Source: Alphaproteobacteria bacterium (GTDB lineage: Bacteria; Pseudomonadota; Alphaproteobacteria; JAGOMX01). Taken from it: 64,000 nucleotides of DNA. The stretch is from positions 1,185 to 65,184 of the forward strand of contig JAGOMX010000004.1 of NCBI GenBank assembly GCA_017993335.1, written 5' to 3'. Below, in pieces: positions 117-47,863 of this stretch. The notes under the pieces are model-generated. The model saw nothing but the letters and a program-made list of their open reading frames with translations. It searched no databases and was not told where the DNA came from. A program made the position numbers and the translations under genes. The first letter of the stretch is position 1; the number at the start of each line of letters is the position of its first letter.

Positions 117-321
117 AAAACCAATTCCATAAAATAACGGATAAATCTTATCCTCGACTCCTGTCATTCCCGCGCAGGCGGGAATCCAGCGCAACAAAGT
201 GCTGCGCAGCAGCTCTCCATTTATTTCAATGCCACAGCAGCAAGGAAATATTGAACCTCTTCGAGGCACATATTGCGCTGGATACCTGCCTGCGCAGGTA
301 TGACAGGCGATGGTTGAGGCG
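117..321 (+). repeat. Family-A compound palindromic intergenic element (about 205 bp), copy A1, abutting the acnA stop codon
   Basis: Begins with ccaattccataaaataacgg and contains two long hairpin modules, gtcattcccgcgcaggcgggaatccagcgcaac and ttgcgctggatacctgcctgcgcaggtatgacagg. The reverse complement recurs at 20120-20376. Related copies are at 18968-19080 and 54309-54528. Confidence 0.7.
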
Positions 322-322
322 C

Positions 323-3004
323 TTACGCAATAAGCTTGCGTAAAACATAATGCAAAATACCGCCGTGCATGTAGTAATCTACCTCGTCGGCCGTATCCAG
401 TCTGGATTGCAACTGGATGGTTTTTTTGTTCCCATCTGCATAAGTAATTTGGCAATCCACAAGCATACCCGGGGATAAGGTTTTGTCTAATCCCGTGATG
501 TCATAAGTTTCGTCGCCAGTTAAATTGAGGCTCAGGCGATTATTTCCCGACGTAAAGACAAAGGGCAGCACGCCCATGCCAATCAGATTCGAGCGATGAA
601 TCCTTTCAAAGCTTTCCGCAATAACCGCTTGAACGCCCAATAACCTGGTGCCTTTGGCGGCCCAATCTCGGGAAGATCCTGTGCCGTACTCTTTTCCCGC
701 AATAATAATTAACGGGGTGTCTTGTTGTTGATAGAGTATCGAGGCGTCATATATGGACATGGCCGTATCCGTGGGCACGTGTTTGGTTACCCCACCAGAT
801 GTGCCAGGAACCATTTCGTTCTTTAGGCGTATATTGGCAAAGGTACCACGCATCATGACTTCATGGTTGCCACGGCGAGATCCGTAAGAGTTGAACTCGC
901 TAACCGGAACACCTTTTTCCTTTAAGTAGATGCCGGCTGGACTGCTTTCCTTAATGGATCCTGCTGGCGAGATGTGATCGGTTGTTACGCTGTCACCTAG
1001 GATGGCCAGGGTCCTGGCACCTTGAATATTTGAAATCTTTTCTGGATTCAGATTCATGTTCGCAAAATATGGCGGATGCTTAACATATGTGCTGTCTGGC
1101 GTCCAGTCATAGGTTACGCTCTGAGAGTCCGATAGATTTTGCCATAGCTCATCTCCTTTAAAGACGTCACCATAACGCTTCATAAACATTTCAGGCGTCA
1201 GGTTTTTCGCAACGCAAGCCAATATATCCGCATTGCTCGGCCATATATCCTTTAAAAATACATCGTTGCCGTTTTGATCTTGTCCCAGAGGATCCTTGTA
1301 GAGGTCAACTTTTAACGAACCGGCCAGAGCATAGGCGACCACTAACAGGGGGGAGGCTAAGTAATTTAGCTTGACCTGTGGATGGATGCGTCCTTCAAAG
1401 TTACGGTTGCCAGATAGAACACCAGAAACCGTTAAATCATTATGCTCAATGGCTTTGGCAATCGGATCCGGCAAGGGGCCTGAATTTCCGATACAAGTTG
1501 TGCAACCATAGCCAACCAAATTAAAGCCCATGGCGTCTAAGTCATCGGTTAATTCAGCTTTATTCAGATAATCCGTCACCACTTGGGATCCCGGTGCCAG
1601 AGATGTCTTCACCCATGGCTTTGTTTTAAGACCCTTGTTCCGGGCGTTTCTAGCCAAAAGGCCTGCGCCGAGCATGACAGAGGGGTTCGAGGTGTTGGTG
1701 CAGCTGGTGATGGCTGCAATGACCACATCCCCATCCTGAAGGGTAAAGTTTTGACCGTTATAATGAACGGAGGCTGATGTGCTCTTTGTGCTGTCTTCTT
1801 TAGATAAAGAATCGTGCACCGATTGAACGGCTTCCGACAATTTAATTTTATCCTGCGGGCGTTTAGGTCCGGCAAGGCTGGGTTCTACTTCAGACAAATC
1901 TAGCGAGAGTGTATCCGTAAAGATAGGATCCGGCGTCTGCGCTGTGCGCCACATGTTTTGTTCCTTGGCATACGCCTCAACCAATTGCACAACGTTTTCA
2001 TCGCGACCCGTGAATCTTAAATAACGTAAAGTTTCGTTATCGGCGGGGAAGAATCCACACGTTGCGCCGTATTCAGGAGCCATGTTAGATATCGTTGCTC
2101 TGTCCGCAATGGTTAAATGATCCAAGCCTGGGCCATAGAATTCAACGAATTTGCCGACGACGCCTTTTTTGCGAAGCATCTCGGTGACGGTTAAGACCAT
2201 ATCTGTGGCGGTTGTACCTTCTTTCAAGGCGCCTGTGATTTTAAAACCGATAACTTCTGGGATGAGCATAGAAATGGGTTGGCCAAGCATAACGGCTTCT
2301 GCCTCGATGCCGCCCACGCCCCAGCCGAGAATGGCTAGCCCGTTAATCATTGTGGTATGCGAATCTGTTCCCACCAACGAGTCAGGGTAGGCATAATTTT
2401 GTCCGTCTTGTTCTCTTTGCCAGACCACTTGACCTAGATATTCCAGGTTAACCTGATGGCAAATGCCGGTGCCGGGCGGAACAACGCGGAAGTTCTCAAA
2501 GGATTGTTGCCCCCAACGCAGGAAAGCGTAACGTTCTTTATTCCGTTCGTACTCTAGCTCTACGTTATCCTGAAAAGACTGATCGCTGGCAAAATGATCG
2601 ACCATGACCGAGTGATCAATTACCAAATCAACAGGAGATAAGGGATTGATTTGATCTGGATGACCGCCCAGTTTTTTAATAGCATCACGCATCGCGGCGA
2701 GGTCAACCACCGCGGGCACACCGGTAAAGTCTTGCATCAAAACGCGGGACGGACTGAAAGCGATTTCGCGGTTGCTAGTTTTTGTTTTTTGCCAATCAAT
2801 TACGGCTTGAATATCCTCAATTGTAACGGTTTTACCGTCTTCATAACGAAGTAAATTTTCCAAAAGAACACGTAAGGAAAAAGGGAGTTTTTCTATAGAA
2901 CCTAGTTGCTTTTCAACCTCATTCAAGCTGAAATATTGAAACTCTTTACCATTGACCTTCATGGATTTGCGTGTTTTAAGGTGATCTTTTCCGAATCTCG
3001 ACAT
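323..3004 (-). CDS. acnA: aconitate hydratase A
   Basis: 893-aa ORF with aconitase family hallmarks (MSRFGKDHLKT...FSLRVLLENLLR..., Cys-containing cluster-ligand regions). Typical length for AcnA. Confidence 0.9.
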   Translation of the reverse strand: MSRFGKDHLKTRKSMKVNGKEFQYFSLNEVEKQLGSIEKLPFSLRVLLENLLRYEDGKTVTIEDIQAVIDWQKTKTSNREIAFSPSRVLMQDFTGVPAVVDLAAMRDAIKKLGGHPDQINPLSPVDLVIDHSVMVDHFASDQSFQDNVELEYERNKERYAFLRWGQQSFENFRVVPPGTGICHQVNLEYLGQVVWQREQDGQNYAYPDSLVGTDSHTTMINGLAILGWGVGGIEAEAVMLGQPISMLIPEVIGFKITGALKEGTTATDMVLTVTEMLRKKGVVGKFVEFYGPGLDHLTIADRATISNMAPEYGATCGFFPADNETLRYLRFTGRDENVVQLVEAYAKEQNMWRTAQTPDPIFTDTLSLDLSEVEPSLAGPKRPQDKIKLSEAVQSVHDSLSKEDSTKSTSASVHYNGQNFTLQDGDVVIAAITSCTNTSNPSVMLGAGLLARNARNKGLKTKPWVKTSLAPGSQVVTDYLNKAELTDDLDAMGFNLVGYGCTTCIGNSGPLPDPIAKAIEHNDLTVSGVLSGNRNFEGRIHPQVKLNYLASPLLVVAYALAGSLKVDLYKDPLGQDQNGNDVFLKDIWPSNADILACVAKNLTPEMFMKRYGDVFKGDELWQNLSDSQSVTYDWTPDSTYVKHPPYFANMNLNPEKISNIQGARTLAILGDSVTTDHISPAGSIKESSPAGIYLKEKGVPVSEFNSYGSRRGNHEVMMRGTFANIRLKNEMVPGTSGGVTKHVPTDTAMSIYDASILYQQQDTPLIIIAGKEYGTGSSRDWAAKGTRLLGVQAVIAESFERIHRSNLIGMGVLPFVFTSGNNRLSLNLTGDETYDITGLDKTLSPGMLVDCQITYADGNKKTIQLQSRLDTADEVDYYMHGGILHYVLRKLIA

Positions 3005-3217
3005 CTACATTTTCCCTGTTATAAAATCTGTTGCTAAAATTTTAACACAGCCAAAATCCCTCGTATAGCCATAGACTGCATATTTTATAAAAAAAAGGGA
3101 TCAGACCGATAAAATTTAAAATAAATGAATTTTTTGTATTTTTTAGTTGGATTTGCCCTCATAGTTTGCTAGTAAGGAGTGTATTGAAGCTTAACTTATG
3201 CTTCTGTTTTTTGCATT

Positions 3218-3302
3218 GCGGGCGTGGTGAAATTGGTAGACACGCAAGATTTAGGTTCTTGTGGCTTAGGCTGTGGGGGTTCAAGTCCCTTCGCCCGCAC
3301 CA
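3218..3302 (+). tRNA. tRNA-Leu (anticodon UAG), type II with long variable arm, CCA encoded
   Basis: Acceptor stem GCGGGCG/CGCCCGC. Anticodon stem CAAGA/TCTTG with loop TTTAGGT, giving anticodon TAG. Long variable arm. T-arm GGGGGTTCAAGTCCC. Discriminator A followed by CCA. Confidence 0.85.
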
Positions 3303-3336
3303 AATTTTTAAAAAAATATTAGGAAGGGCATCCCTT

Positions 3337-4680
3337 ATGAAAGTCCTCACGGAATCATCCAAAGATTTACGATATGAATTTAAGATTGAAATAGCTTCTC
3401 AAGATATTGAGGCTGAGGTTGAACAATCCCTTATTAAATACGGAAAGACGGCGAAGTTGCCAGGCTTTAGACCTGGGAAGATTCCTCTTTCTGTGCTGCG
3501 TCAAAAATTTGATGAAGGGGCACGTCAGGATGCGATTAATGCGGCTGTTAAACAGTCTGTGGGTGAAGTGCTGAAAGAAAAATCATTACAGCCCGCTTCT
3601 AGTCCTAAGATTGAGTTATCTACCTATAATAAAGGGGATGACCTGGTCTATACGATGGAAATTGAAGTGTTGCCATCCTTTGAGATTCAGGATTACACCG
3701 GTATTAAGGTCACAAAATTGGCTGTTAAATTGACAGACAAGGATGTGGACGATCATTTGATTAAATTGCTAGAGCATCAAAAGCGGACTGTTAAAGTTGA
3801 GGCGGATCGCAAATCGCAAAAAGGTGATACGGTTGTTATTGATGCGACGGCTTCTAATCCTGATTTTGATGCCAGTGAACAGGGCTTTGAGTCTTTTCAT
3901 TTGTTGTTAGGCAATAATCATCTGGAAACCTTTGATGAGAAGTTGGTCGGAAAAAAAGTTGGCGATGTGGTGGATATTGAATTTACCCTGCCGGAAAATT
4001 TCCCTAACAAGCCGTTTGCGGGCAAGACTTTAAATTATCACACAACCATTAAAGAAATTCGTGAGCCAATTAAGCCAGAAATTACGGAAGAGATTGCGAA
4101 GGAATTTGGGTTTGAGAATTTAGAAGCCTTGCGTAAAGAGGCTCGCGATCAATTGCAGCAATCCACAACGCGGCCTTCCTTCTTATATGCGAAGCGTCAA
4201 ATCTTGGATAGCTTATCCAAGCAATATAGCTTCCAATTGCCGCAGACCTTGTTAGACCATGAGTTTAAGGCGATTTGGGAAGATGTCGAAGCGGAAATGA
4301 AGCATGAGACGGAAACAGAAGGCAAACCTCAGCCTTCGGACAAAGAAATCGAAGCCATGAAAAAGAAATACTTAAATCTGGCTGAGCGTCGTGTTCGTTT
4401 AGGTCTTGTTTTGTCTGAAATTTCTAAAAAGCATGAAATTTCCGTGCCAAAAGAAAAAATTGCACAGGCTGTAATGCAGGCTGCAAAGCAGCACAAGGGA
4501 TACGAGAAAGAGGCTTTTGAGTACTACTTTAAAAACCCAGAAGCCAATGCGCAAATACGTGCGCCTTTGTTGGAAGACGAAGTTATGCATTTCTTGTTGG
4601 ATAAACTAAAAACAACAGAAAAAGAGCTAGACCTAGACGCCTTTAAAAAGGAACTAGAAACGCTTTCAGACGAAGGTTAA
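3337..4680 (+). CDS. tig: trigger factor (ribosome-associated chaperone / PPIase)
   Basis: ATG at 3337 is preceded by AGGAAGG. The ORF track begins upstream at 3166, overlapping the tRNA, which is unlikely. 447 aa with the trigger factor N-terminus MKVLTESSKDLRYEFKIEI...GFRPGKIP. Confidence 0.9.
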   Translation: MKVLTESSKDLRYEFKIEIASQDIEAEVEQSLIKYGKTAKLPGFRPGKIPLSVLRQKFDEGARQDAINAAVKQSVGEVLKEKSLQPASSPKIELSTYNKGDDLVYTMEIEVLPSFEIQDYTGIKVTKLAVKLTDKDVDDHLIKLLEHQKRTVKVEADRKSQKGDTVVIDATASNPDFDASEQGFESFHLLLGNNHLETFDEKLVGKKVGDVVDIEFTLPENFPNKPFAGKTLNYHTTIKEIREPIKPEITEEIAKEFGFENLEALRKEARDQLQQSTTRPSFLYAKRQILDSLSKQYSFQLPQTLLDHEFKAIWEDVEAEMKHETETEGKPQPSDKEIEAMKKKYLNLAERRVRLGLVLSEISKKHEISVPKEKIAQAVMQAAKQHKGYEKEAFEYYFKNPEANAQIRAPLLEDEVMHFLLDKLKTTEKELDLDAFKKELETLSDEG

Positions 4681-5057
4681 GAGATTCTCAAAACTCGATG
4701 AAGCTCTTGGATTCGCCTCTCCCCTTTGTGGGAGAGGCCGTCCGCAGGGCGGGTTCGGCCGTAAGGCCAGGTGGGTTTTCAGTCTCTCACCCTTTCGCTT
4801 TCCTACGGGGCTCTCCCACAAGGGGGGGGATGAAGTCAGGGTCGCCCATGAAAAAACATATCACCAGAACCTGTCCAACTAATTCCAGAAAACAACTGAT
4901 ACCATTTACCCTAACAGGGCCTACGCATGAAAAATTAAAGAGAGGAAGATCCATCCACACCTGTCACACCTGCCTTCGCAGGTATGACAGGTACTTGTAA
5001 CTGTTTTGTGCAATTTTCATGCGCAGGTCCTGTTTACCCTAAATAAACATCATACCA

Positions 5058-5377
5058 CCCCGTCATGCTGAGCGCGGCTCCGCGCAAGCGGAGTTAGCGA
5101 AGCATCCAGGACTATAAGTGCCGCGATGGCGGCTCTTTATAATCTATATAGAGCCAGAGGCCATTTCAAAACTGGCTTTTTTGGAGGGATTTATAGGAAA
5201 GGTGAGAACCGGAGCGCAGCGTACCTCTTCGTACGTGAGCACCGGGAGCGGAACCTTGACGACGAAATCACCCAAAAAAGACGTTTTGAAATGGCCTCAG
5301 CCACTAAAGTGGCACTTGTGTGCCTGGATCCTTCTCTCACTCAGCTAACGCTGAGCTTCGATCAGGATGACGGGGGT
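5058..5377 (+). repeat. P1-family palindromic element (about 173 bp native), copy P1a, interrupted by a 142-bp MITE insertion
   Basis: cccgtcatgctgagcgcggctccgcgcaagcggagttagcgaagcatccaggactataagtgccgcga...gacggggg. Collinear with the copy at 7758-7928 except for the inserted 142 bp plus 5 bp. Confidence 0.65.
5157..5298 (+). mobile_element. MITE-like non-autonomous element: 142 bp, 16-bp terminal inverted repeats GAGGCCATTTCAAAAC, 5-bp target-site duplication AGCCA
   Basis: The ends gaggccatttcaaaac ... gttttgaaatggcctc are perfect reverse complements. They are flanked by AGCCA (5152-5156) and AGCCA (5299-5303). The uninterrupted site gagccactaaag exists in the paralogous repeat at about 7848. 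A second copy is at 54547-54688 in reverse orientation. Confidence 0.7.
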
Positions 5378-5613
5378 TATGATACTTATTTATGATAAAC
5401 GGTATCAGTTATTTCATGGGATTGGTATGACAGGTGTGGGTGGTCGCTCCTCTCTTAAATTTTTCATGCGTATGTCCTGTATTTTTCGTAAAAAAGCTTG
5501 AATAATTGTATGCGACATCCTATGTGTGATAGAGATGAGCTTTTCCATGTCTAACAGTTAGCAAGGTTAAGGCCGATAATTTTTGTCAATTGTTAAGATA
5601 GAAAGTAATTGTT

Positions 5614-7644
5614 ATGGTGGTTTCTTATAAAAATTTGAGCACAGCGATGCTTTCCGTATTGTTGTTAACGTCTCCATCCTTTGGATCGGCGGAGGGTAGT
5701 GAACCTGACTTGAAAAAGGCGAGGGTTTCTCCTGGTTCGGATGATTTTGATTGGATGTCTTTGGTTGAGGTAAAAAAAGAACCAACCGATGAAAGGCGTG
5801 ATGCGGGTGTTGACCTGTTTTTGCTGACTCATGAGGGGATTAAAAATAATTTAAGACGAATTAATCCGGTTGATCCGGTTTTAAAGAGAAAACCAACGGC
5901 GAATTGCTTGCTTTGTTGTGTTTCGTTTTTGAATTGGGTTAAGACGGGTGTATTGACGCCGGCTCCGGCGGTGACTCCGGATAAACCCAATATTTTGATT
6001 CGCCCGAAAAATGCCGTGCTTTTAGATCAAGATGCGGCAAAAGCCATTCCTGGCCATGCGGTGGAAATTATTATTGAAGATGTGCAAGAAAAAACAGTGG
6101 CAGATCTAGATGTTATCGCTGTGGTAGAGCGAGATGGCCGCAAAATAATTTCGTTTGATCCTTGCGCGATGTCTGATTTAGAAAAGACTCTAGCGGATTT
6201 GCATTTGCATCCGGTTCGCGGCGGGGATTGTGCTTCAGGTCTTATGAGCCTGGGGTATAAGCCTGAATACATGGACAAGGTCGTTACGGAGGCTGGCATT
6301 ACCGGGCACTTTCTGAATTTTTATATGTATAGCGATGCTTCGGGATTCAGAAAAACATACATTGTGGATCCGCAGACTTCGGAAATCACGACCTTGGCAA
6401 ATTTCATAAAAAAAGAATCGAAGTATGATTTAGATACCGTGTACCTATGGTGGGATAGTACGAAAAAAGCCTGGGCTGAGCCTATTTCTTACGTCAAAAA
6501 AGAACCGGTCGCAGCAGAGGTTCCAGAAGATATTCTAACGGATGCCGATCCCAATCCCAGAAAAAGATCCGCAGAAATACCCCTGGAAGAATTGCAAAGC
6601 AATGACGCTCAAAAAAAACCTGCCATAGATGATTTTGAAGAGAACGATCGTATACTTGCGACATTTGCATGGAAAGATAAAGATAATCTTCTAGGGGATC
6701 TAGATCGTTTCTTAACCCAGGCGTTTAATCTGAATCAGCAGCAACAGTCTTTTTGGGTCATGGATATGTCCTTAAAAGGCAGTATCTACGCACAATCGAT
6801 ACTAAGCTGGATGTATTTTTATGGAAAAATATCTGGTGCTAGTGATTATACTTCCGCAGTATTTTATGCAAGAAAATCCGCCGATCAGGGGTATGCTCCA
6901 GCGCAATGTGGTTTGGGGTTTTTATATTCAAACGGCCATGTAGACGGCCAAGTGAATGGGGTCGAGGCTTTCAATTGGTATAAAAAAGCCGCCGATCAGG
7001 GGTATGCTCCAGCGCAATGTGGTTTGGGGTTTTTATATTCAAACGGCCATGTAGACGGCCAAGTGAATGGGGTCGAGGCTTTCAATTGGTATAAAAAATC
7101 CGCCGATCAGGGATATGCTACAGCGCAATGTAATTTGGGGAGGTTATATGCAAACGGCCATGTAGACGGCCACGTGAATGGGGTCGAGGCTTTCAAATGG
7201 TACAAAAAAGCCGCCGATCAGGGGCATGTTGCAGCGCAATATGGTTTGGGGTTTTTATATTCAAACGGCCATGTAGATGGCCAAGTGAATTGGGTTGAAG
7301 CTTTCAATTGGTACAAAAAAGCCGCCGATCAGGGGCATGCTACAGCGCAATATAGTTTGGGGGTTTTATATGCAAAAGGCCATGTGGACGGCCAAGTGAA
7401 TAGGGTCGAGGCTTTCAAATGGTGCAAAAAAGCTGCAGATCAAAATTATGCTGTCGCACAAGATGCTCTGGGGGATATATATGCCAATGGTTATCTTGGT
7501 AAAAAAAATTTAGAAGAGGCTTTAAAATGGTACAACAAAGCTTATTTACAGCAGAGAGATTTAGTTGAGCAAAAAATAATTGAGGTTAGGAAACAGATGG
7601 GGAAAATAAGGGCTTATAACTTGCTATTTCGCAATTCTCTCTGA
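5614..7644 (+). CDS. Sel1-like repeat (SLR) protein with N-terminal signal peptide and a unique N-terminal domain of about 400 aa; effector-like
   Basis: Signal peptide MVVSYKNLSTAMLSVLLLTSPSFGSA. Six tandem 37-aa repeats AADQGYAPAQCGLGFLYSNGHVDGQVNGVEAFNWYKK fit the Sel1 consensus (A..G...A...LG..Y..G.GV..d...A..WY.KAA). Confidence 0.85.
   Translation: MVVSYKNLSTAMLSVLLLTSPSFGSAEGSEPDLKKARVSPGSDDFDWMSLVEVKKEPTDERRDAGVDLFLLTHEGIKNNLRRINPVDPVLKRKPTANCLLCCVSFLNWVKTGVLTPAPAVTPDKPNILIRPKNAVLLDQDAAKAIPGHAVEIIIEDVQEKTVADLDVIAVVERDGRKIISFDPCAMSDLEKTLADLHLHPVRGGDCASGLMSLGYKPEYMDKVVTEAGITGHFLNFYMYSDASGFRKTYIVDPQTSEITTLANFIKKESKYDLDTVYLWWDSTKKAWAEPISYVKKEPVAAEVPEDILTDADPNPRKRSAEIPLEELQSNDAQKKPAIDDFEENDRILATFAWKDKDNLLGDLDRFLTQAFNLNQQQQSFWVMDMSLKGSIYAQSILSWMYFYGKISGASDYTSAVFYARKSADQGYAPAQCGLGFLYSNGHVDGQVNGVEAFNWYKKAADQGYAPAQCGLGFLYSNGHVDGQVNGVEAFNWYKKSADQGYATAQCNLGRLYANGHVDGHVNGVEAFKWYKKAADQGHVAAQYGLGFLYSNGHVDGQVNWVEAFNWYKKAADQGHATAQYSLGVLYAKGHVDGQVNRVEAFKWCKKAADQNYAVAQDALGDIYANGYLGKKNLEEALKWYNKAYLQQRDLVEQKIIEVRKQMGKIRAYNLLFRNSL
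6880..7545 (+). repeat. Six tandem 111-bp coding repeats (Sel1 units); the first two are near-identical at the nucleotide level
   Basis: Units start at about 6880, 6991, 7102, 7213, 7324 and 7435. Units 1 and 2 differ by about 1 nt. Confidence 0.8.
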
Positions 7645-7757
7645 GGACGAAGTTTGTTCCCTGGCGGAGGGGTTACAAATGAGGGTTGAGGAGGTTTAAG
7701 GCAGTCTCTATTGGTATGTTTATGCCGTTTACCCTAAACTAAGTATTATTACCCACT

Positions 7758-7928
7758 CCCGTCATGCTGAGCGCGGCTCCGCGCAAGCGGAGTTAGCGAA
7801 GCATCCAGGACTATAAGTGCCGCGAAAGCGGCTCTTTATAATCTATATAGAGCCACTAAAGTGGCACTTGTGTGCCTGGATCTTTCGCTTACTCCGCTGA
7901 CGCGGAGCTGCGTTCAAAATGACGGGGG
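7758..7928 (+). repeat. P1-family palindromic element, copy P1b (intact, 171 bp)
   Basis: The left half cccgtcatgctgagcgcggctccgcgcaagcggagttagcgaag is the approximate reverse complement of the right half ctttcgcttactccgctgacgcggagctgcgttcaaaatgacggg. It contains the intact MITE target sequence gagccactaaagtggcac. Confidence 0.65.
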
Positions 7929-7949
7929 TATGATGCTTAATTTATTGTA

Positions 7950-13392: not shown

Positions 13393-14652
13393 CTATAAAG
13401 TTAAGGCTAGTCTCAAATCATTGTGTTCAAAGGCAGATGACATGCGATCTGCCTCGCGGTCTTTCATGCCTAGTAACTTTGCCTGCTCTCTCCATCCTGC
13501 CACCGCAATTCCAGCCTCATTTGCTATTCTTTTGGCAGATTCTTTTGAGAGGCCAAATCTATCTGATACGCTCAAGGCAAGTTCTAATGAAGCGCAGTCG
13601 TCTTCTTCATCTATTGCTAAAGAGAGGCGCCTGGGTTTTATATCCAAGGGGGTGGGGTTAATGTCATATGCGGGTGATAGTCTCCATCCATCTGAATTGG
13701 GTAACAAAAGCCCATGATTTCTCAAATGATCATCAGTGTTAGACACTAGAATGGAAAAAACGATTCTTTTCCAGAGCTCGATCAAGTCTTGCTGAGGGTT
13801 TCCACTATAACGACGCAATGCATCTGCTACCTCAAGATAGCTATGGGGATCGTTGTCGCCAGCTTCTAGAAGGCTCATAGCCGAGATAAATGGTATTCGT
13901 TTAACGCCAATGCGATCAAACCTGTTAAGTAATATGACCGAACGACCAGCAATTTTTAACAATTTATGACGTGTGACTCGCAGGCCTGCCTTAGATGCAA
14001 GGGTCAATGCAAGACTTTCCCAAGCTGGCAGGTCTATGTTATCTTCCGGATGAGGAAACTTTGCTATCAATAACTCCCCTTCTTTTGAACGCACGGAGGC
14101 CTTTGGTCTGGCCCCACCCAAAGAAGAGCCTGGCGCTAATAGCAGTCTCATCTCTTCATCATTTTCTTCCTCTTTTATAGCATGGGTGGTGGCCACAAGC
14201 AGGCGAGGTAAATCAATTAATAGAGGCACACGTTTTCCATTGACGGGTTGCGCTAAAAAAGCTCCCTCTAGTTTTTCCGAAAATCTTAGCGCTCCTTGCC
14301 GACATTCATCATCAACATTCAACAAAAAGTCTATCTCTTGAAGGGTGTGCGGGTTTTCACCTTTAGTCTTGGCTAGTCTCTGATGGGTTCGCCTCATGAG
14401 TGTTCTGCCCCAACGGTCTGGAGCTGAATCACCAATTGAGCCGAACAAAGCTCTGCCTTGTCCAGTATGAAATGGAGCTGGGTGCAAAGTTAATGCCGGC
14501 TCTAAGGCGAAGCGTGAAGGATTAGTTAGCCAGCTAGAGTCGTATTCAAAACTCGAACTTTCACGACCTTTCCGGTTTCTCGCAAAAAGACGCCCTACAA
14601 AGAAAGTGTTTCCTTCCCAATCCACATAGACAAATGCAATTTTGTCTGTCAC
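13393..14652 (-). CDS. hipA: type II toxin HipA-family serine/threonine kinase
   Basis: HipA N-terminal coupling domain (VYVDWEGNTFFVGRL), SLGGARPKASV motif and catalytic TDDHLRNHGLLL motif. The GTG start overlaps the hipB stop (GTGA). Confidence 0.85.
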   Translation of the reverse strand: MTDKIAFVYVDWEGNTFFVGRLFARNRKGRESSSFEYDSSWLTNPSRFALEPALTLHPAPFHTGQGRALFGSIGDSAPDRWGRTLMRRTHQRLAKTKGENPHTLQEIDFLLNVDDECRQGALRFSEKLEGAFLAQPVNGKRVPLLIDLPRLLVATTHAIKEEENDEEMRLLLAPGSSLGGARPKASVRSKEGELLIAKFPHPEDNIDLPAWESLALTLASKAGLRVTRHKLLKIAGRSVILLNRFDRIGVKRIPFISAMSLLEAGDNDPHSYLEVADALRRYSGNPQQDLIELWKRIVFSILVSNTDDHLRNHGLLLPNSDGWRLSPAYDINPTPLDIKPRRLSLAIDEEDDCASLELALSVSDRFGLSKESAKRIANEAGIAVAGWREQAKLLGMKDREADRMSSAFEHNDLRLALTL

Positions 14653-14987
14653 AAATCACCTTCCTTTTTTTTCTTAGCCAACTGTATCCTCTTCGGAAGT
14701 CTTTCTTCCTCTAAATCAAGCCCAACCTCATCCCCACGTATATCTGCAAGATCAGCTAACTTTTGGTCTAGGCCTAATATAAAAAGAATTGTGATATATA
14801 TCCCCATGGATACTTCAGGGGAACCCTTTTCAGCTCTTGCAAGTGTGCTCGTGCTAATCATCGCTCTTTGCGCCATGATCGAGGTAGGAATGCGACGCCT
14901 ACGCCTGGCATCCTTAATGTCCTGCCCAAATTTTTTTAATGCACGTTCCGCACGTAAAGGTATAGTTTGAATGGCATGTGACTTCAT
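14649..14987 (-). CDS. hipB: HipB-like XRE-family HTH antitoxin / transcriptional regulator
   Basis: 112 aa. HTH (IPTSIMAQRAMISTSTLARAEKG). Lies directly upstream of hipA with a 4-nt overlap. Confidence 0.75.
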   Translation of the reverse strand: MKSHAIQTIPLRAERALKKFGQDIKDARRRRRIPTSIMAQRAMISTSTLARAEKGSPEVSMGIYITILFILGLDQKLADLADIRGDEVGLDLEEERLPKRIQLAKKKKEGDL

Positions 14988-18181: not shown

Positions 18182-18955
18182 ATGTGGATAGATAGTCATT
18201 GTCACTTAAACTATGATGATTTTGGGAGCGATTTGCCAGAAGTTTTTCAGCGGGCTAAAGATGTTGGTATAGAAAAAATGCTGACGATTTGTACGGATAT
18301 GGCCGAGGCCGATACTATACTAAAGCTCGCCAACCAGCATCCAGAATTATGGTGCACAGTTGGTGTGCATCCCCATGAGGCAAAACAAACCGTTGATCTG
18401 ACGGGTCTGTATGAGAACTTAAAGTCGTATATGGTTCATGAAAAAGTCATCGGTTTAGGGGAGACAGGCCTGGATTATTATTATGAACACAGCCCAAGAG
18501 CTGAGCAGCAACAAGCTTTTCAGGTGCATATGGATGTGGCAAAAGAGCACGATTTGCCCTTGATCGTTCATACAAGAGACGCAGAAGAAGATACAATCGC
18601 TTGTCTAAAAAAACAGCAAGGCGCTGTAAGAGGCGTGATTCATTGCTTTAGTGGCTCTCATTGGCTCGCGCAACAAGCATTAGATTTGGGTTTTTATATT
18701 TCTATCTCCGGCATCATTACGTTTAATAAGGCGGAAGACATTCGTCAAACCCTCAAAAGTGTACCGTTAGATAGAATCTTAGTGGAAACCGACGCCCCAT
18801 ATTTGGCTCCTGTCCCAAAAAGAGGCCAACGAAACGAACCCGCATTTATGATCCACACCGCAGAAAAAGTCGCGGAAATAAAAGGGATCTCTACACAAGA
18901 GCTAGCGAAAATAACCACAGAAAATTTTTATCGCTTATTCTCAAAAGCTTTGTGA
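18182..18955 (+). CDS. tatD: TatD-family metal-dependent hydrolase/DNase
   Basis: MWIDSHCHLNYDDF...GLGETGLDYYY...VETDAPYLAP motifs. Confidence 0.9.
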   Translation: MWIDSHCHLNYDDFGSDLPEVFQRAKDVGIEKMLTICTDMAEADTILKLANQHPELWCTVGVHPHEAKQTVDLTGLYENLKSYMVHEKVIGLGETGLDYYYEHSPRAEQQQAFQVHMDVAKEHDLPLIVHTRDAEEDTIACLKKQQGAVRGVIHCFSGSHWLAQQALDLGFYISISGIITFNKAEDIRQTLKSVPLDRILVETDAPYLAPVPKRGQRNEPAFMIHTAEKVAEIKGISTQELAKITTENFYRLFSKAL

Positions 18956-18967
18956 TGCCATATTTAA

Positions 18968-19080
18968 TACCAATTCCATAAAATAACTGATAAATCTTAC
19001 CCTCGCTGCCTGCGCAGGTATGACAGGCAATGGTTGAGGAGATTCAAGACAGCCTCTATCTGTATGCTTATACTAATTCC
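18968..19080 (+). repeat. Family-A element, internally deleted copy A2
   Basis: ccaattccataaaataactgataaatcttaccctcg fused to ctgcctgcgcaggtatgacaggcaatggttgaggagattcaagacagcctctat. Lies immediately 3' of tatD. Confidence 0.6.
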
Positions 19081-19121
19081 AGAAAATAAGTATCATTACC
19101 CACGGTCGAGTCGCCCGGGGG

Positions 19122-20078
19122 TTATGATTTTGGTTCAAAACAAAAACGACATTTCATCATAAGAAGAATCCCCCCCGCCTGCCTCATCGGCAACTGCCTC
19201 CAACCGGTACCTGCATCCGGATGCCGCCGCACTTTTTTATGCTCATATATATTGAAAATAGGGGTTTCGTTCATCTCGCCAAATCTCAAGATCGTATAAT
19301 TGAACCCCCAGGTGGTAATATCATCCCCACCATACCTACTAAGCATACAAACCGCCTTCTGCGATAAATCTGCTTCGGAGACGTTCCGTAGAAATGCAGG
19401 ATGGGTGGATATCTGCTCAGCAATACGTTTCAATTCACTCAACGTCAGAAGAAGAAGAATAGTTTTTTCAGTATTGGGATAAACCGGATTTAGAAATTTT
19501 TCTGTCATCCTCGTGACACACAGATCTGAAGGGATAGTCTTTGGCAGAATGAGCTCACCATTGGTCGTGTCCATATACATATCTGATAATTGGACATCAA
19601 TTACAGTTAAGCCTCCAGGTTCATAGCGGAAAATGCCGTTTTTTAGGGTTCTCTCATCCTGCTCCATCATTCGCAGCCTCAGATATGGCTCCGGGCTTTC
19701 CGGGGGTATAGGCCTACCAAATTTTATAGCTGGGAGAATAATTTCCCTTACATAATTAAGATTATCGGAGCCTAAGAAAAAGCGACACCAAGATTTACAA
19801 ACCAAGGCATAATCTGAGGTCAGTTTTTGCGCCAAAAATCGATTGGCAATAGTTTTTTTTATGTCCAACGGTATTCCAGGAAAAAATTCTTCATGCAAAA
19901 TGCGTGCAGATGAAGATTCTTCCGGTACCTCCATGTTAGCCAAAGCGAGGCGATGAACGGATGGAGACTCAAGTTCCAGAGGGGGCAGTCCATCTTCACT
20001 TGCAAGTACATTAAAATACCCTGCACTTAAGATCATGAGACTTGTGATTATCGCTAATTTCTTTGTAAACTTAATCAT
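19122..20078 (-). CDS. secreted hypothetical protein with an F-box-like motif
   Basis: Signal peptide MIKFTKKLAIITSLMILSAGYFNVLA. Residues about 68-100, IPLDIKKTIANRFLAQKLTSDYALVCKSWCRFF, match the F-box consensus LPxEIlxxIlxxLxxxxLxxxxxVCKxWxxl in spacing and key residues. Confidence 0.6.
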   Translation of the reverse strand: MIKFTKKLAIITSLMILSAGYFNVLASEDGLPPLELESPSVHRLALANMEVPEESSSARILHEEFFPGIPLDIKKTIANRFLAQKLTSDYALVCKSWCRFFLGSDNLNYVREIILPAIKFGRPIPPESPEPYLRLRMMEQDERTLKNGIFRYEPGGLTVIDVQLSDMYMDTTNGELILPKTIPSDLCVTRMTEKFLNPVYPNTEKTILLLLTLSELKRIAEQISTHPAFLRNVSEADLSQKAVCMLSRYGGDDITTWGFNYTILRFGEMNETPIFNIYEHKKVRRHPDAGTGWRQLPMRQAGGILLMMKCRFCFEPKS

Positions 20079-20119
20079 TTATACGAATCTCTATATATAT
20101 CAAAAACATCGTTATACAC

Positions 20120-20376
20120 GGAATTATACCAGATCCTATAATTAAGTATACAGATAGATGCTGTCTTAAATCTCCTCAACCATCGTCTGTCATACCTGCG
20201 CAGGCAGGTATCCAGCGCAACATGTGCCTCGAAGAGGCTCCATATTTCCTTGCTTCTGTGGCATTGAAATAAATGGAGAGCTGCTGTGCAGCACTTTGTT
20301 GTGCTGGATTCCCGCCTTCGCGGGAATGACAGGCGGCGAGGGTAAGATTTATCCGTTATTTTATGGAATTGGTATT
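20120..20376 (-). repeat. Family-A element, copy A3, in inverse orientation to A1
   Basis: Its reverse complement aligns with 117-321 across the full length, including both hairpin modules. Confidence 0.7.
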
Positions 20377-20418
20377 AGTTGAATAGAGGAATAGTGTGAA
20401 CTATTCCTCTATTCAACT
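20377..20418. repeat. perfect 18-bp-stem hairpin (agttgaatagaggaatag / ctattcctctattcaact) with a 6-nt loop
   Basis: Exact reverse complementarity read from the sequence. Lies directly next to the A3 element. Confidence 0.8.
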
Positions 20419-20453
20419 AATGTTCCTTTATGGTGTGCAGGGGTAACTAGATC

Positions 20454-39363: not shown

Positions 39364-41577
39364 ATGACTCTATTCAAAATAACACGTAATTTATTTGCAG
39401 CTTTAATGTTTTTATGTGCATCTGTGCATGCCTCTAATCCCAGTGAACGTGCCGAGATTTTGTTTAGAATTTGTTGCGGGGATTTGACGATAGAGTCTGC
39501 CTATTCAGAGGAAAAATATAAGGATTTTAATATGTGTGTTAAAAATCTGGAAAGAAATATAAAGATTTTATCGTCTCCTGATGCAGATATGGGTATGAAA
39601 ATGGGGATGGCTAATCTTCTTTGTAAGGATCCAAGATTCTGCCATAAAAAAGAATACAAACAAATTGGGTTAAGATTTTTTGAAGAGTTGTCACTGTTGG
39701 GGAAGTATTCAGATGCCCAGTATATGTTCAGTTTCTTTCTATTAAAAGAAGATGATCCAGAATGTGTGAAAAAAGGATTGAAGTGGCTTGAAATATCTGC
39801 AAATGCTGGTGAGACTATGGCCATGAATGGTATGGCTTTGAATCTTCTTAATTCTACGTGGTGTGAGGATACGTTAGAAAATAAAAAGAAGGGAATGGCG
39901 TGGCTTGAAAAAGCTGCAAAATTAGGTTGTCCAGCTTCTCAATCTACTTTAGGGCGCTATATGGTGAGGGGGATGTATGTTGATAATACAAAAGAAAACA
40001 AAAAAAAGGGTATCGAATGGCTTGAAAAGGCTGCCGAGGCCGGTATAGTTTACGCCATGAATGATCTAGGTGTGTTCCTTATTCAATCAGGAGAAGAACA
40101 GAAAAAAGGTATAGAGTGGATAATGAAGGCTGCAGATTTAGGTCATGCGGTTTCTATGTCGAATCTTGGTCTTTTAATGATAAAAAATAAGTATTTTAAA
40201 GATACGAAAGAAAACAAGAAAAAGGCTGTGGAATGGCTTGAAAAGGCTGCAAATGCAGGCGTAATTTCCTCTATGAATGAACTAGGCAAGGCTCTTGTGG
40301 GGGCTATAGGCTGTGAAAATACACCGGAAAATAAGAGAAAGGGAATTGAGGTATTTATAAAAGCTTCCGATGGGGGAGATGCTGTATCCTCTTTTCAAAT
40401 TGCGTATTTTTACTTCACGGGAATGTCTGTGCTAGAGAAGGATTTCCAGAAAGCTATATATTATTTTGAGAGGGCAAATGATAAATATCTTGCGGACGAT
40501 TATATGGGGTTTTGTTATTTAAAGTTGTCTGAATACAGAAAATCCTTGAAACACTATGAGCTTGCGAGAAGAAGAGGAGCATTTGTATCGGATGCAATGA
40601 TTAAATACTTAGAATCTAAAGCGAATCCTCAATTTCAGGACCGTAAAAAATCTAAAAACAACAGTAAATCTAGAACAATTCAGGGAATTCAGAGCGATCT
40701 AGATCAACAAAAAATTCAGTTGCTGCAGCAGTATGATTCGGTTTCTACCCAATTAAAAAAACTGGAAGAGCTGAAGGTAAAAAATAACTATAAGTCGGAT
40801 GCGGGCGATGAGGTCTCTGCAGAGGAGTTAAAAAAGTATAGGGATGATTTTGTAAAAAATCATAAATCTACTTTAGCCAATAAACAGGAAAATATATCCT
40901 TGTTTCAAGATTATCTGATGAATATAAAAGATAAAATTTTTCACCAAAACCAAGCTTTGAGCATAAGCATAAGAATGGAAAATCAGAGAAAAACCATCCA
41001 GGATCATTATGATGCTTTTGGTGTGCTGTCTGTAGATGAAGAATCTAGAGAAGCAAAAGCATCGGCTAAGAAAAATGCACAACTGGTTTTGGATCAAGAA
41101 AAAGAAAAGGCGCACGCCAAACATAATAAATCTAATGCAAAGAAAAAAAAGAAGAAGTCAAAAAAAACGGTGCCGATAGCAACGCAAGCGGAAACAAAAG
41201 CAATCGGACCATTCTCCGATACTCGTTTGATCGTCAAAACAGAAGCTGATATACCAGAGGCGGCTATGCAGAAAGCTTATACAATTCTGAACGGAATTCG
41301 GGATTCCCGCACGATAGATGAGGTTGTCAATAAGTTGAAATCTCTGGATATCAAGGTAGACATAAAAAAAATATCATCAGACTACGCCGGTTGCCCAGAG
41401 GCTGATGTGGTTTATGAGGCGAGAATCAACAACCAATATCGTGTGATTATTCCCTTTATCCATGTGAAAAATGAGGCTATTGCTAATGACAATAATAATC
41501 GCACACCAGAATCCGATGTCACAACTTTAATATATCAAAGCGAAATATACATCTGCGATCCCCATGTGAAGCAATGA
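39364..41577 (+). CDS. Sel1-like repeat protein with signal peptide, Lys-rich coiled-coil segment and a unique C-terminal domain; effector-like
   Basis: Signal peptide MTLFKITRNLFAALMFLCASVHA. Repeats KKKGIEWLEKAAEAGIVYAMNDLGVFL, KKKAVEWLEKAANAGVISSMNELGKAL and others. A K-rich tract KKKKKKSKK. Confidence 0.8.
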   Translation: MTLFKITRNLFAALMFLCASVHASNPSERAEILFRICCGDLTIESAYSEEKYKDFNMCVKNLERNIKILSSPDADMGMKMGMANLLCKDPRFCHKKEYKQIGLRFFEELSLLGKYSDAQYMFSFFLLKEDDPECVKKGLKWLEISANAGETMAMNGMALNLLNSTWCEDTLENKKKGMAWLEKAAKLGCPASQSTLGRYMVRGMYVDNTKENKKKGIEWLEKAAEAGIVYAMNDLGVFLIQSGEEQKKGIEWIMKAADLGHAVSMSNLGLLMIKNKYFKDTKENKKKAVEWLEKAANAGVISSMNELGKALVGAIGCENTPENKRKGIEVFIKASDGGDAVSSFQIAYFYFTGMSVLEKDFQKAIYYFERANDKYLADDYMGFCYLKLSEYRKSLKHYELARRRGAFVSDAMIKYLESKANPQFQDRKKSKNNSKSRTIQGIQSDLDQQKIQLLQQYDSVSTQLKKLEELKVKNNYKSDAGDEVSAEELKKYRDDFVKNHKSTLANKQENISLFQDYLMNIKDKIFHQNQALSISIRMENQRKTIQDHYDAFGVLSVDEESREAKASAKKNAQLVLDQEKEKAHAKHNKSNAKKKKKKSKKTVPIATQAETKAIGPFSDTRLIVKTEADIPEAAMQKAYTILNGIRDSRTIDEVVNKLKSLDIKVDIKKISSDYAGCPEADVVYEARINNQYRVIIPFIHVKNEAIANDNNNRTPESDVTTLIYQSEIYICDPHVKQ

Positions 41578-45253: not shown

Positions 45254-46543
45254 ATGTCGAATCCTTTTTTTGCCGTCTTTGTCGTCATGGTTTTTGTGGC
45301 GAATATTTCTCGTTCTTATGCCTCTGATTTGCCTGAATCGTTACCCTCGCAACATTCTTATTCATCTATGTTATTTCGTCCGTTCAATGCGGTGTTGGAT
45401 GTGGTTTGTGCGCCTTTGCATTTTATGTCCACGAAGAGTTACGCGGAGCAACTGGAGGATAAATTCAAAACCATATCGAAAGTTCTCCATAAAAAAGTTA
45501 TTTCACCGGAACTTAAAGTAGATGTTTTGCATGATCTTGAATCCTGTGCTTCTGCAGGGCATCCGCAGGCTATGTATGTGTTTGGCTCTTTATTGTTAGG
45601 TTGCCCTGCAGAGCCCTATAATGCCCTAGAAGCCCTTATTGAACGGGATCGAGATTTGGGTTTTCAATATGTAGATGCGGCTGCGAATAAAGGGAGCGCG
45701 GAGGCAATAAGTTTACGGCAGCAATGTTGGGGCGCTACGAAGTTAGAATCTTTAGTAAACGATAGTTTGGAAGTGGCCAGCGATGAGGAAAAACAGAAGT
45801 TTGCAGCTCGTGTGACCGAAGAAATGCCGGAGCTCGTGCGCGTTAATCCTCATGCGGCCTTTTATTGCTGTGATGCCATTTTAAATAAAGAAAAATCGGC
45901 TTATCCGTGGATGTCCAGTTCATCATTATCCTTGCTGGATCAACGAACGATTATGAGTCCTTTATTGAAATTCGCTGTTAAAAATAATGTTTTAGAAGCC
46001 AGGCGGTTAATGTATTTTCTGGAGCAAGAAGACGCGGTTTATGTCCGTGTCTGTGAATCCATCATGAAAAATCCAGAGAAAATCATCAAAGGTTTGAGTA
46101 TGTGGGATCCAGGATATTTGCAAGAGCATATTAGTTTTCTTGTGGAACAAACCATTGAGGAAAGAGGGTATGTCTTAACGAAAGAATATGCCCTGTTTAT
46201 AAAGTCCGTTATGGGGCTTCGTATGAATCAAGTTTTTTACTTTCTCGGGTCGTATTTTAGTTACATCCGAATTTCCCGGGCCACTGAATTTAATGATGGG
46301 GAGATCGGTACTTTGCTGCATGTAATGAGCGTGCGTAAAATGGGGGATCTTCTTGTGGGTAAAACAAATTATTTCTTAGAACCTATCTGGCATAAAGATT
46401 ATGAAAAAGGTCTTTCTGTCGATTTCACCGAACATAAACTGTATTGTGCCGTAACGAAGCTAGATGTGCATTTAGCGTTAGGGATGTTATTGGATTTTGA
46501 AGATCATCCTTTTCCGGAGGTAGCTAACCTGGTGATGGAATAA
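45254..46543 (+). CDS. secreted hypothetical protein (429 aa) with a single possible Sel1-like unit
   Basis: Signal peptide MSNPFFAVFVVMVFVANISRSYA. CASAGHPQAMYVFGSLLLG resembles a Sel1 repeat. Confidence 0.6.
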   Translation: MSNPFFAVFVVMVFVANISRSYASDLPESLPSQHSYSSMLFRPFNAVLDVVCAPLHFMSTKSYAEQLEDKFKTISKVLHKKVISPELKVDVLHDLESCASAGHPQAMYVFGSLLLGCPAEPYNALEALIERDRDLGFQYVDAAANKGSAEAISLRQQCWGATKLESLVNDSLEVASDEEKQKFAARVTEEMPELVRVNPHAAFYCCDAILNKEKSAYPWMSSSSLSLLDQRTIMSPLLKFAVKNNVLEARRLMYFLEQEDAVYVRVCESIMKNPEKIIKGLSMWDPGYLQEHISFLVEQTIEERGYVLTKEYALFIKSVMGLRMNQVFYFLGSYFSYIRISRATEFNDGEIGTLLHVMSVRKMGDLLVGKTNYFLEPIWHKDYEKGLSVDFTEHKLYCAVTKLDVHLALGMLLDFEDHPFPEVANLVME

Positions 46544-46548
46544 GTTGT

Positions 46549-47850: not shown

Positions 47851-47863
47851 AAGAAACTCATTT

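Follow-up and report, generated by a model that had tools for sequence, protein, structure and literature searches.

The window analyzed here, a 64,000-nt stretch of contig JAGOMX010000004.1 from an uncultured alphaproteobacterium, carries four copies (A1 to A4) of a repeated element built around two hairpins, H1 and H2, and on sequence grounds these hairpins are members of the known pan-bacterial dRS3/NTS/SRM family. The original prediction had held that the repeat could not be assigned to a known family; this does not stand, as the hairpins carry the dRS3/NTS/SRM motif. Because the family of the hairpins is known, the element counts as a local variant of an already described type of repeat, not as a new class: its compound form is new, but no new kind of element is revealed. 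An anonymous repeat of an uncultured, probably host-associated alphaproteobacterium is now tied to the dRS3/NTS/SRM hairpin system, whose cognate enzyme family, the Ssn nucleases, was characterized only in 2025. Further detail is also added to that system: a clean covariation marks the individual hairpin, not the long palindrome, as the unit under selection; conservation between genera extends to the hairpin-core-hairpin doublet, the outer arms being lineage-specific; and SRM doublets appear as cargo of miniature transposable elements with inverted repeats (MITEs) of the terminal inverted repeat (TIR) type in at least two phyla.

The four copies were confirmed as real, far above chance and almost exactly at the sites first reported (117-321, 18968-19080, 20120-20376 and 54309-54528). 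A family of compound palindromic elements had been proposed, and this description was upheld, the elements being dispersed and non-coding; the inverse-orientation and internally deleted copies that it included are A3 and A2, respectively. Partial ends had also been placed near 4951-4995 and 5405-5445, and weak fragments were indeed recovered at both sites. The copies, with their modules (arms X and Y, hairpins H1 and H2 and the core between them), and the fragments are as follows.

118-319, plus strand: copy A1, with X 118-162, H1 163-194, core 195-272, H2 273-304 and a Y stub 305-319
18967-19069, plus strand: copy A2, internally deleted, with X 18967-19005, the 3' half of H2 19006-19024 and Y 19025-19069
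19070-19089, plus strand: X-like terminus ATACTAATTCCAGAAAATAA in direct orientation, directly 3' of A2 (blastn, 90% over 20 nt), which is a remnant of a further element
20126-20375, minus strand: copy A3, the sole full-length copy (250 nt), in inverse orientation, with X 20375-20331, H1 20330-20299, core 20298-20221, H2 20220-20189 and Y 20188-20126
54300-54521, plus strand: copy A4, with X 54300-54340, an H1 variant 54341-54372, core 54373-54426, H2 54427-54458 and Y 54459-54521
4966-4993, plus strand: degenerate H2-type hairpin fragment (weak nhmmer match), within a nest of other repeats
5403-5428, minus strand: fragment of the X-arm terminus (blastn, 88% over 26 nt), in the same nest as 4966-4993
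7658-7721, plus strand: diverged Y-like arm of about 68% identity (nhmmer, E 1e-4), adjoining a type-2 palindromic element

Four copies and three fragments are thus contained in 64 kb. In an all-against-all repeat search, 116-324 was complementary to 20169-20377 (93% over 209 nt) and 20126-20220 to 54427-54521 (97% over 95 nt), and the segments 18965-19012 and 19006-19070 matched the two ends of the element. When the full copy was used as the query in nhmmer, 118-324 (E 1.5e-55), 54307-54520 (E 7e-34), 19006-19070 (E 5e-13) and 18967-19012 (E 5e-6) were recovered. The elements lack coding capacity. The check for copies lying in frame inside open reading frames (ORFs) found none, all copies being intergenic, and with the C-termini of AcnA, TatD and RpoD apparently complete, none of the copies changes a protein. 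Judged by Pfam, the element is not a fragment of a larger insertion sequence (IS) or prophage in the window.

The modules follow one order, an AT-rich arm X, hairpin H1, a core, the inverted hairpin H2 and an AT-rich arm Y. Their lengths, and their G+C contents as measured in A3, are given below.

X arm: 45 nt, G+C 40%, with the 5' terminus ATACCAATTCCATAAAATAAC
H1: 32 nt, G+C 59%, a hairpin
Core: 54-78 nt, G+C 47%, variable
H2: 32 nt, G+C 59%, the inverted hairpin
Y arm: 63 nt, G+C 35%, with the 3' terminus GGATCTGGTAT

In the inverted pairs, the starts of the 27-nt hairpins are 91-115 nt apart and the interval between the hairpins measures 64-88 nt; the unit folds end to end. The termini of X and Y (ATACCA...TGGTAT) are terminal inverted repeats, ATACCAATTCCATAAAATAA versus ATACCAGATCCTATAATTAA, which agree at about 15 of 20 positions and are paired in the fold; since they pair with each other, the whole constitutes a compound palindrome of about 250 bp. 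The DNA fold of the whole element reached -52.9 kcal/mol (z -7.6), and the RNA folds -94.5 kcal/mol (z -8.8) and -103.2 kcal/mol (z -6.8); the element thus forms an extended stem-loop, as had been foreseen.

The module-by-module comparison of A1 and A3 gave an identity of 91-100% in every module, which argues that the composite was copied as one unit. The Y arm of A1 is shortened to 15 nt. In A2, H1, the core and one half of H2 are missing, and its deletion junction, CTCGCTGCCTG|CGCAGG, falls on a GCCTG microhomology common to both parental sites. H2 is 97-100% identical in all of the copies and Y is 97% identical between A3 and A4, whereas the 54-nt core of A4 is unrelated to that of the other copies, its H1 is a variant and its X arm has diverged to about 70% identity. 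The family is accordingly built as a mosaic, module by module, and is not a set of simple copies.

H1 has the sequence GTCATTCCCGCG(C/A)AGGCGGGAATCCAG. The hairpin pattern GTCATNCCNGCGNAGGCNGGNATCCAG was matched six times in the window, with no match expected by chance, at the following sites.

163-189, plus strand: NTS/SRM-type hairpin GTCATTCCCGCGCAGGCGGGAATCCAG of A1, with an exact dRS3 (ATTCCC-N8-GGGAAT) at 166-185
278-304, minus strand: H2-type hairpin GTCATACCTGCGCAGGCAGGTATCCAG of A1, a compensatory variant of the NTS stem
20189-20215, plus strand: H2-type hairpin of A3, pattern match
20304-20330, minus strand: NTS/SRM-type hairpin GTCATTCCCGCGAAGGCGGGAATCCAG of A3, with an exact dRS3 at 20308-20327
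54341-54367, plus strand: SRM-type hairpin GTCATACCCGCGAAGGCGGGTATCCAG of A4, matching the SRM pattern
54432-54458, minus strand: H2-type hairpin of A4, pattern match

The exact dRS3 20-mer was found only at the two sites indicated (0 expected), and the remaining four of the six hairpins are ATACCY-N8-RGGTAT variants of it. H1 agrees with the NTS consensus CGTCATTCCCGCGMAVGCGGGAATCYRG at 27 of 28 positions; the strict consensus had no match in the window, and two hairpins fit the 27 positions that follow its first base. The published degenerate SRM pattern, HGTCWYN(0-2)YYVSBRHN(0-5)WNVSBRGN(0-2)RNCYNB (Chenal et al., 2025, PMC11893778), was matched by three hairpins of the element (162-189, 20304-20331 and 54340-54367), with 0.3 matches expected in the window. 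A fourth match, at 2554-2580 inside acnA, looks like chance.

NTS/SRM hairpins have been described as being bound and cut solely as single-stranded DNA (ssDNA), on one strand, by small GIY-YIG nucleases of the Ssn family; the ssn genes are typically flanked by the motif, SRMs are widespread over phyla, and symbionts, among them Rickettsia and Wolbachia, are overrepresented among the genomes with more than 300 of them (PMC11893778). Besides the sequence of the hairpin and the SRM pattern, the element shares with that system an oriented hairpin with asymmetric flanks, an intergenic and multi-copy occurrence, often in inverted pairs, a wide phylum range and the symbiont enrichment. It differs in that the pair is wrapped here in AT-rich arms of 45-63 nt, which are undescribed in PMC11893778. 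In Neisseria, dRS3-RS-dRS3 units are the building blocks of NIMEs (Bentley et al., 2007, PMC1797815), and ATTCCCGCGCAGGCGGGAATC was reported by Bertels and Rainey (bioRxiv 10.1101/2021.07.10.451892) as the Neisseria repetitive extragenic palindromic (REP) sequence that forms REPIN doublets tied to a Group 2 RAYT.

Each hairpin consists of an 8-bp stem, a 4-nt loop and the asymmetric flanks TGTCAT and ATCCAG. The stem is perfect in six of six hairpins and the flanks are invariant, as expected of an oriented hairpin. Two double changes separate H2 from H1 and leave the stem of H2 intact, and further compensatory variants were observed in H1 of A4 and in the hairpins of a relative of this bacterium (see below). 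When 13 hairpins (12 distinct) were compared, 97.9% of the stem cells were paired, three of the eight stem pairs were altered on both sides, and none of 500 shuffles attained the covariation score. By contrast, the cross-pairing of H1 with H2 contains four to six mismatches, located exactly at the covarying positions. The perfect local stems and the mismatched H1:H2 pairing indicate that selection keeps each small flanked hairpin and not the long palindrome; a protein that recognizes hairpins singly would account for this better than would a stem acting at the level of the transcript.

The RpoD encoded in the window is 100% identical to MBP6985176.1, from an uncultured alphaproteobacterial metagenome-assembled genome (MAG), and the next relatives are found at 80% and 76% identity. 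In the relative at 76% (L051/L052), likewise an alphaproteobacterial MAG, doublets of about 135 nt were detected with the arrangement TGTCATCCCCGCGAAGGCGGGGATCCAG-core-inverted copy, and GTGCTGCGCAGCAGCTCT is common to the cores of these doublets and to the core in the window. Positions 36-208 of the 251-nt nhmmer query (the full copy), in which the hairpins and the core span about 47-188, aligned to the doublets of the relative with an E value of 4e-14; arms X and Y did not align to its elements in this nhmmer comparison. Since H1, core and H2 align in the relative and the arms do not, the unit that is conserved is the doublet, with the arms as a lineage-specific shell. A mosaic of nested elements is also present 3' of rpoD in the relative.

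Farther away, when the full element was used as a blastn query, the plasmid and replicon records yielded matches to the hairpin alone, in N. gonorrhoeae, Azospirillum, sphingomonads, Photobacterium and Cupriavidus, and none to arms X and Y. The exact 32-mer was found at 44 loci, distributed over 12 representative genomes of several phyla. At two of these loci (L039 and L007) a GIY-YIG gene adjoins the hairpin; in the first, from Saccharibacteria, the gene is flanked by the hairpin on both sides, which is the published NTS-ssnA-NTS layout. At the second (Pseudomonadota MAG GFS_5653), the segment 160-720 contains tandem NTS-type hairpins with a constant spacer of about 28 nt (CCAAAAACACTTTTCACATCAACC...), beside a partial GIY-YIG (Ssn-like) gene.

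The element is probably, though far from certainly, an SRM/REPIN-like doublet that is non-autonomous and lies nested in a MITE-like, lineage-specific shell; its hairpins would offer ssDNA sites to an enzyme encoded in trans. Its functional heart would be the inverted pair of NTS/SRM-type, dRS3-class hairpins around the variable core, in a REPIN-like or dRS3-RS-dRS3-like arrangement, with the doublet placed inside the AT-rich shell of arms X and Y. The hairpins would most likely act as ssDNA, during replication, repair or DNA uptake, with each of them extruding separately, and would be recognized by an ssDNA enzyme specific for hairpins, whose gene would lie elsewhere in the genome. An Ssn-family GIY-YIG nuclease is the likeliest candidate for this role, and a RAYT-type HUH transposase would be the alternative. 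The interaction with the enzyme, together with recombination between copies, may have caused the modules to be spread, reshuffled and deleted. The copies would persist where they are harmless, in spacers containing a 3' gene end, and a possible insertion at TAA or TTA triplets would leave copies abutting stop codons; effects on mRNA 3' ends would be a by-product. What we infer in this explanation is the enzyme acting in trans, the mechanism by which the element moves and its preference for a target. The symbiont enrichment reported in the Ssn paper (PMC11893778) was taken as support for it, the host being an uncultured alphaproteobacterium. Proteins with leucine-rich repeats (LRR), Sel1 repeats and weak ankyrin-like matches are encoded in the window (Pfam), and they suggest a host-associated lifestyle of this alphaproteobacterium.

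Several observations weigh against the SRM-doublet explanation, and some of them also set the element apart from the published NTS/SRM system. All of the copies read TGTCAT where the NTS consensus has CGTCAT, the first base being T and not C, and half of the hairpins, the three of H2 type (ATACCT...AGGTAT), are not covered by the published degenerate SRM pattern. Among the about 50 ORFs of the 64-kb window, Pfam revealed no gene for a transposase, a RAYT or a GIY-YIG protein, and tblastn likewise detected no cognate ssn gene there; on the other hand, this absence agrees with the element being non-autonomous. RAYT-type REPs usually bear a GTAG-like 5' tetranucleotide; neither GTAG nor CTAC adjoins the hairpins, whose flanks are TGTCAT and ATCCAG. 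Arms X and Y had no match in metagenome scans with arm-specific patterns, in a viral scan or in a protein-space search that used as query a 52-aa ORF running through the element. No empty site was recovered, and transposition was not demonstrated, by the exact-protein look-ups for RpsD, RpoD, TatD, the product of ORF 19122-20078 and a LigB-like protein. These look-ups gave short unitigs ending inside the element and one strain (L049) with a larger rearrangement. The six short-read unitigs, from the same strain or one about 99.5% identical, all end inside X, Y or H1, as expected if those sequences recur elsewhere in the genome, and this counts for the explanation, not against it. Finally, the extended RNA fold is very stable and would be compatible with a role at the RNA level.

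A tentative and rather unlikely reading is that SRM/NTS doublets may be portable cargo acquired repeatedly by unrelated MITE shells, or that they may insert preferentially into the middle of other palindromic elements. A Pirellulaceae MAG (JANMGV01, L003-L044) contains a 177-nt MITE, GGAACAGTCCCGAAA...TTCGGGACAATTCC, in at least 30 copies, many of them at contig ends. Six of its eight complete copies have identical 3-nt flanks (3-bp target duplications), and the MITE holds an SRM doublet with a 32-mer identical to H1 of the window. A MITE with target duplications that carries such a doublet implies that SRM pairs can ride in genuine MITEs, which also counts in favor of a doublet nested in a MITE-like shell. 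If the reading is true, carriage by MITEs would be an unrecognized route for Ssn target sites to expand and to cross phyla, and insertion at TAA would explain the copies that start exactly at stop codons with the stops preserved.

It is unlikely, though by no means far-fetched, that the element is an ordinary TIR-type MITE of about 250 bp, moved as double-stranded DNA by the DDE transposase of an IS located elsewhere in the genome, which would recognize the termini of X and Y, with the SRM doublet as passive cargo. The inverted repeats of the X and Y termini, which pair in the fold, would be natural in such an element; so would the copying of A1 and A3 as a composite unit and the presence of the same hairpin doublet in the Pirellulaceae MITE with its clear 3-bp duplications, and other MITE-like families of the window show nested insertion and a 5-nt duplication. 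TAA was found directly 5' of X in all four copies, and the two intact Y ends are followed by TAA (A3) or TTA (A4). In A4 the TAA preceding X is the rpoD stop codon. The TAA may, however, belong to the terminal repeat (TAATACCA...TGGTATTA in A4), which with four copies is indistinguishable from a 3-bp duplication; a target duplication is therefore not established. Moreover, the window contains neither a related IS nor a transposase, the arms match nothing in the collections searched, and A4, in which an H2 and Y of 97% identity to those of A3 are combined with another core and another X, is more readily explained by modular recombination than by simple copying.

The copies had also been described as lying exactly at 3' gene ends, where they might serve as terminators or mRNA stabilizers. 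The identities of acnA and tatD were confirmed by Pfam, and that of rpoD by its sigma-70 domains in Pfam and by the 100% match to an annotated RpoD. The placement holds for three of the four copies: the end of A1 is 3 nt from the acnA stop codon (323-325, minus strand), A2 starts 11 nt past that of tatD (18953-18955) and A4 begins 0 nt past that of rpoD (54297-54299). It does not hold for A3. This copy occupies the spacer that separates rpsD (3' end 20505) from the start of ORF 19122-20078; the rpsD stop codon is 129 nt away, with the rpsD terminator in between, and the copy is 47 nt upstream of the start codon of the next gene. This ORF, previously called F-box-like, had no Pfam match. The X end of A3 abuts a perfect 44-nt palindrome with a 20-bp stem (20376-20419; TAGTTGAATAGAGGAATAGT gtga ACTATTCCTCTATTCAACTA), which is downstream of the rpsD terminator and has no U-tract. 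Among the spacers of at least 100 nt, elements were held by 4 of 12 tandem, 2 of 4 convergent and 0 of 6 divergent ones, counting this and the neighboring repeat families and with A2 added by hand; the bias toward 3' ends is a trend and is not significant for one window.

An RNA function, in which a stem-loop in the 3' untranslated region would terminate transcription or shield the upstream mRNA from 3' exonucleases, appears improbable. The three copies located 0-11 nt past a stop codon and the very stable RNA folds (z -6.8 to -8.8) speak for it, and REP elements of E. coli stabilize upstream mRNA. In the consensus scan, however, no intrinsic terminator (a G+C stem followed by a U-tract) was detected in the hairpins or arms, the sole terminator-like exception being a weak 5-bp hairpin of the core whose orientation differs between copies, and the copies are present in both orientations relative to the upstream gene. 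Furthermore, rpsD has a canonical terminator of its own, CCCCGGCAAATTTGCTGGGG followed by T7, 35-65 nt past its stop codon and before A3. Rfam returned nothing at the gathering score for the elements, with far sub-threshold matches to the hairpin and otherwise one tRNA at the gathering and permissive thresholds. The compensatory changes keep the local hairpins and degrade the long H1:H2 stem, and SsnA was reported to have no action on RNA (PMC11893778). Termination as the primary function was rejected because of the missing U-tract, the terminator of rpsD itself and the conservation of local stems over the long one; when the two orientations of the copies are also considered, the idea of a terminator or mRNA stabilizer gained no positive support.

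Of similarly low probability is the explanation that the copies are sites of recombination or gene exchange, comparable to NIME arrays or to the NTS-gene-NTS arrangement, and that they would single out variable genes of host interaction to be replaced or protected when DNA is taken up. The orphan ORF 19122-20078 has A2 on one side and A3 on the other, the two copies being inverted. Strain L049 (ENA ERZ28654168) is 99.4% identical across rpsD and diverges right after the rpsD terminator (window position 20449), where a different gene (MFTRKFKFRLLAFWAFL...) and no element follow. Since L049 lacks the ORF at this place and the flanking copies are inverted, the segment may be a variable cassette. 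In Neisseria, NIME arrays and NTS pairs are tied to variable surface genes and to transformation (PMC11893778, PMC1797815). Nevertheless, this is one example only, the second boundary of the difference in L049 was not recovered, and the other copies follow the housekeeping genes acnA, tatD and rpoD.

It is very improbable that the copies are chimeric joins of the assembly, for although the contig comes from a MAG and the short-read unitigs break at every copy, independent unitigs reproduce each junction between gene and element, one of them covering most of A2 (window 18977-20153), the copies differ from each other in specific ways, and the same class of element is present in a 235-kb contig of the relative.

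Among the known systems of Neisseria, the closest analogue is the dRS3-RS-dRS3 (NIME/REPIN) unit, and not the Correia element to which the repeat had been likened. The two exact dRS3 hairpins, the inverted arrangement around a variable core of 54-78 nt, the G+C peak at the hairpins (59%) with lower values in the core (47%) and arms (35-40%), and the formation of mosaics with other repeat families are common to both. On the other hand, only single units without arrays are found in the window, whereas the dRS3 of NIMEs flank RS units of 50-150 bp and are typically clustered in long arrays (PMC1797815); the host is an alphaproteobacterium and the NIME family is specific to Neisseria; the arms X and Y are additional; and the 6-nt termini are altered in four of the six hairpins. 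The Correia element was rejected, since its inverted repeat TATAGTGGATTAACAAAAATCAGGACAA had no match in the window at up to three mismatches. Correia and Rickettsia palindromic elements are, like this one, short non-coding palindromic dispersed repeats of reduced or host-associated genomes, but they are not defined by an SRM hairpin pair, and those of Rickettsia often lie in frame inside genes, in contrast to the intergenic position of every copy here.

The REPIN-RAYT system (bioRxiv 10.1101/2021.07.10.451892) likewise has two inverted REP-like hairpins less than 130 nt apart, and in both cases the doublet is a conserved, non-autonomous unit with the potential to form a long hairpin. The differences are the absence of a RAYT gene from the window and the non-identity of H1 and H2 within a pair, due to compensatory changes. 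QMITE2 of Coxiella burnetii has a GTAG REP and target duplications of 7-11 nt and is itself a target of IS1111 (Wachter et al., 2018, PMC5896051). It resembles the element in being a 150-190-bp MITE around a REP-like palindrome, with full-size and small versions, mainly in 3' untranslated or intergenic regions and sometimes a few nt from stop codons, and its REP part also occurs in Alphaproteobacteria; the GTAG REP, the 7-11-nt duplications and the use as a target by IS1111 were not seen here, in a comparison made by description only. QMITE1 and QMITE2 were dropped as candidates in view of these missing features and of the RpoD, which is that of an uncultured alphaproteobacterial MAG.

Other repeat families were observed in the window. 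A MITE-like element of 143 nt, with termini GAGGCCATTTCAAAAC...GTTTTGAAATGGCCTC, is present as two inverted copies that are 98% identical, at 5157-5299 and 54546-54688; the latter is located 25 nt past A4. The former interrupts a member of a second REPIN-like family with a longer hairpin (GTCATGCTGAGCGCGGCTCCGCGCAAGCGGAGTTAGCGAAGCATCCAGG and an inverted partner), and a duplication of AGCCA is seen there in comparison with the intact copy (7758-7929). This second family was found at 5042-5395 (interrupted), at 7728-7945 (intact) and as a remnant at 19085-19130. It has NTS-type flanks (GTCAT/ATCCAG) and arms of its own, TTTACCCTAAA...ATTACCCAC / GGGGGTTATGAT, and the segment 7725-7950 gave no blastn match in the plasmid records. 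A similar pair of long hairpins is located 3' of rpoD in the relative (L051 12120-12600).

A third family is defined by the terminal repeat ACAGGGCCTACGCATGAAAAATT, found at 4914-4939, at 5455-5480 (inverted) and at 63960-63986, where a copy starts at the end of the window. Its termini enclose a nest of other repeats of about 570 nt (4914-5480), and in the relative with 76% RpoD identity (L051 12256-12470) they enclose an SRM-like doublet. The adjacent segment 4700-4860 is rich in G+C, with palindromes such as CTCTCCCCTTTGTGGGAGAGG, and may be yet another type of repeat; a spurious ORF of 100 aa (4698-5000) had no Pfam match, and the repeat region 4685-4915 no blastn match in the plasmid records. 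In addition, an 87-nt direct repeat (31667-31753 and 34462-34548, 92% identical) lies upstream of two unrelated genes, one for a 716-aa protein with a weak ankyrin match and the other dnaE, and it may represent a promoter or leader segment that was duplicated, or else a further repeat family.

With regard to the genes, ORF 5614-7644 contains at least six tandem repeats of 111 nt (6762-7601; 62-91% identity to the reference copy), which encode near-identical Sel1 repeats in a 676-aa protein, and a second Sel1 protein is encoded at 39364-41577. In the regions 45254-48556, 48609-49787 and 32133-34283, a cluster of ORFs (429, 433 and 230 aa) had no Pfam match, and an LRR protein and a protein with a weak ankyrin match are nearby. 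The trigger factor ORF as mechanically called (3166-4680) overruns a tRNA-Leu (anticodon TAG) at 3218-3302, and the real start of tig is near 3340. At 13393-14987, a HipA-like kinase of 419 aa adjoins an overlapping small helix-turn-helix protein, and the two are likely to constitute a HipBA-type toxin-antitoxin pair.

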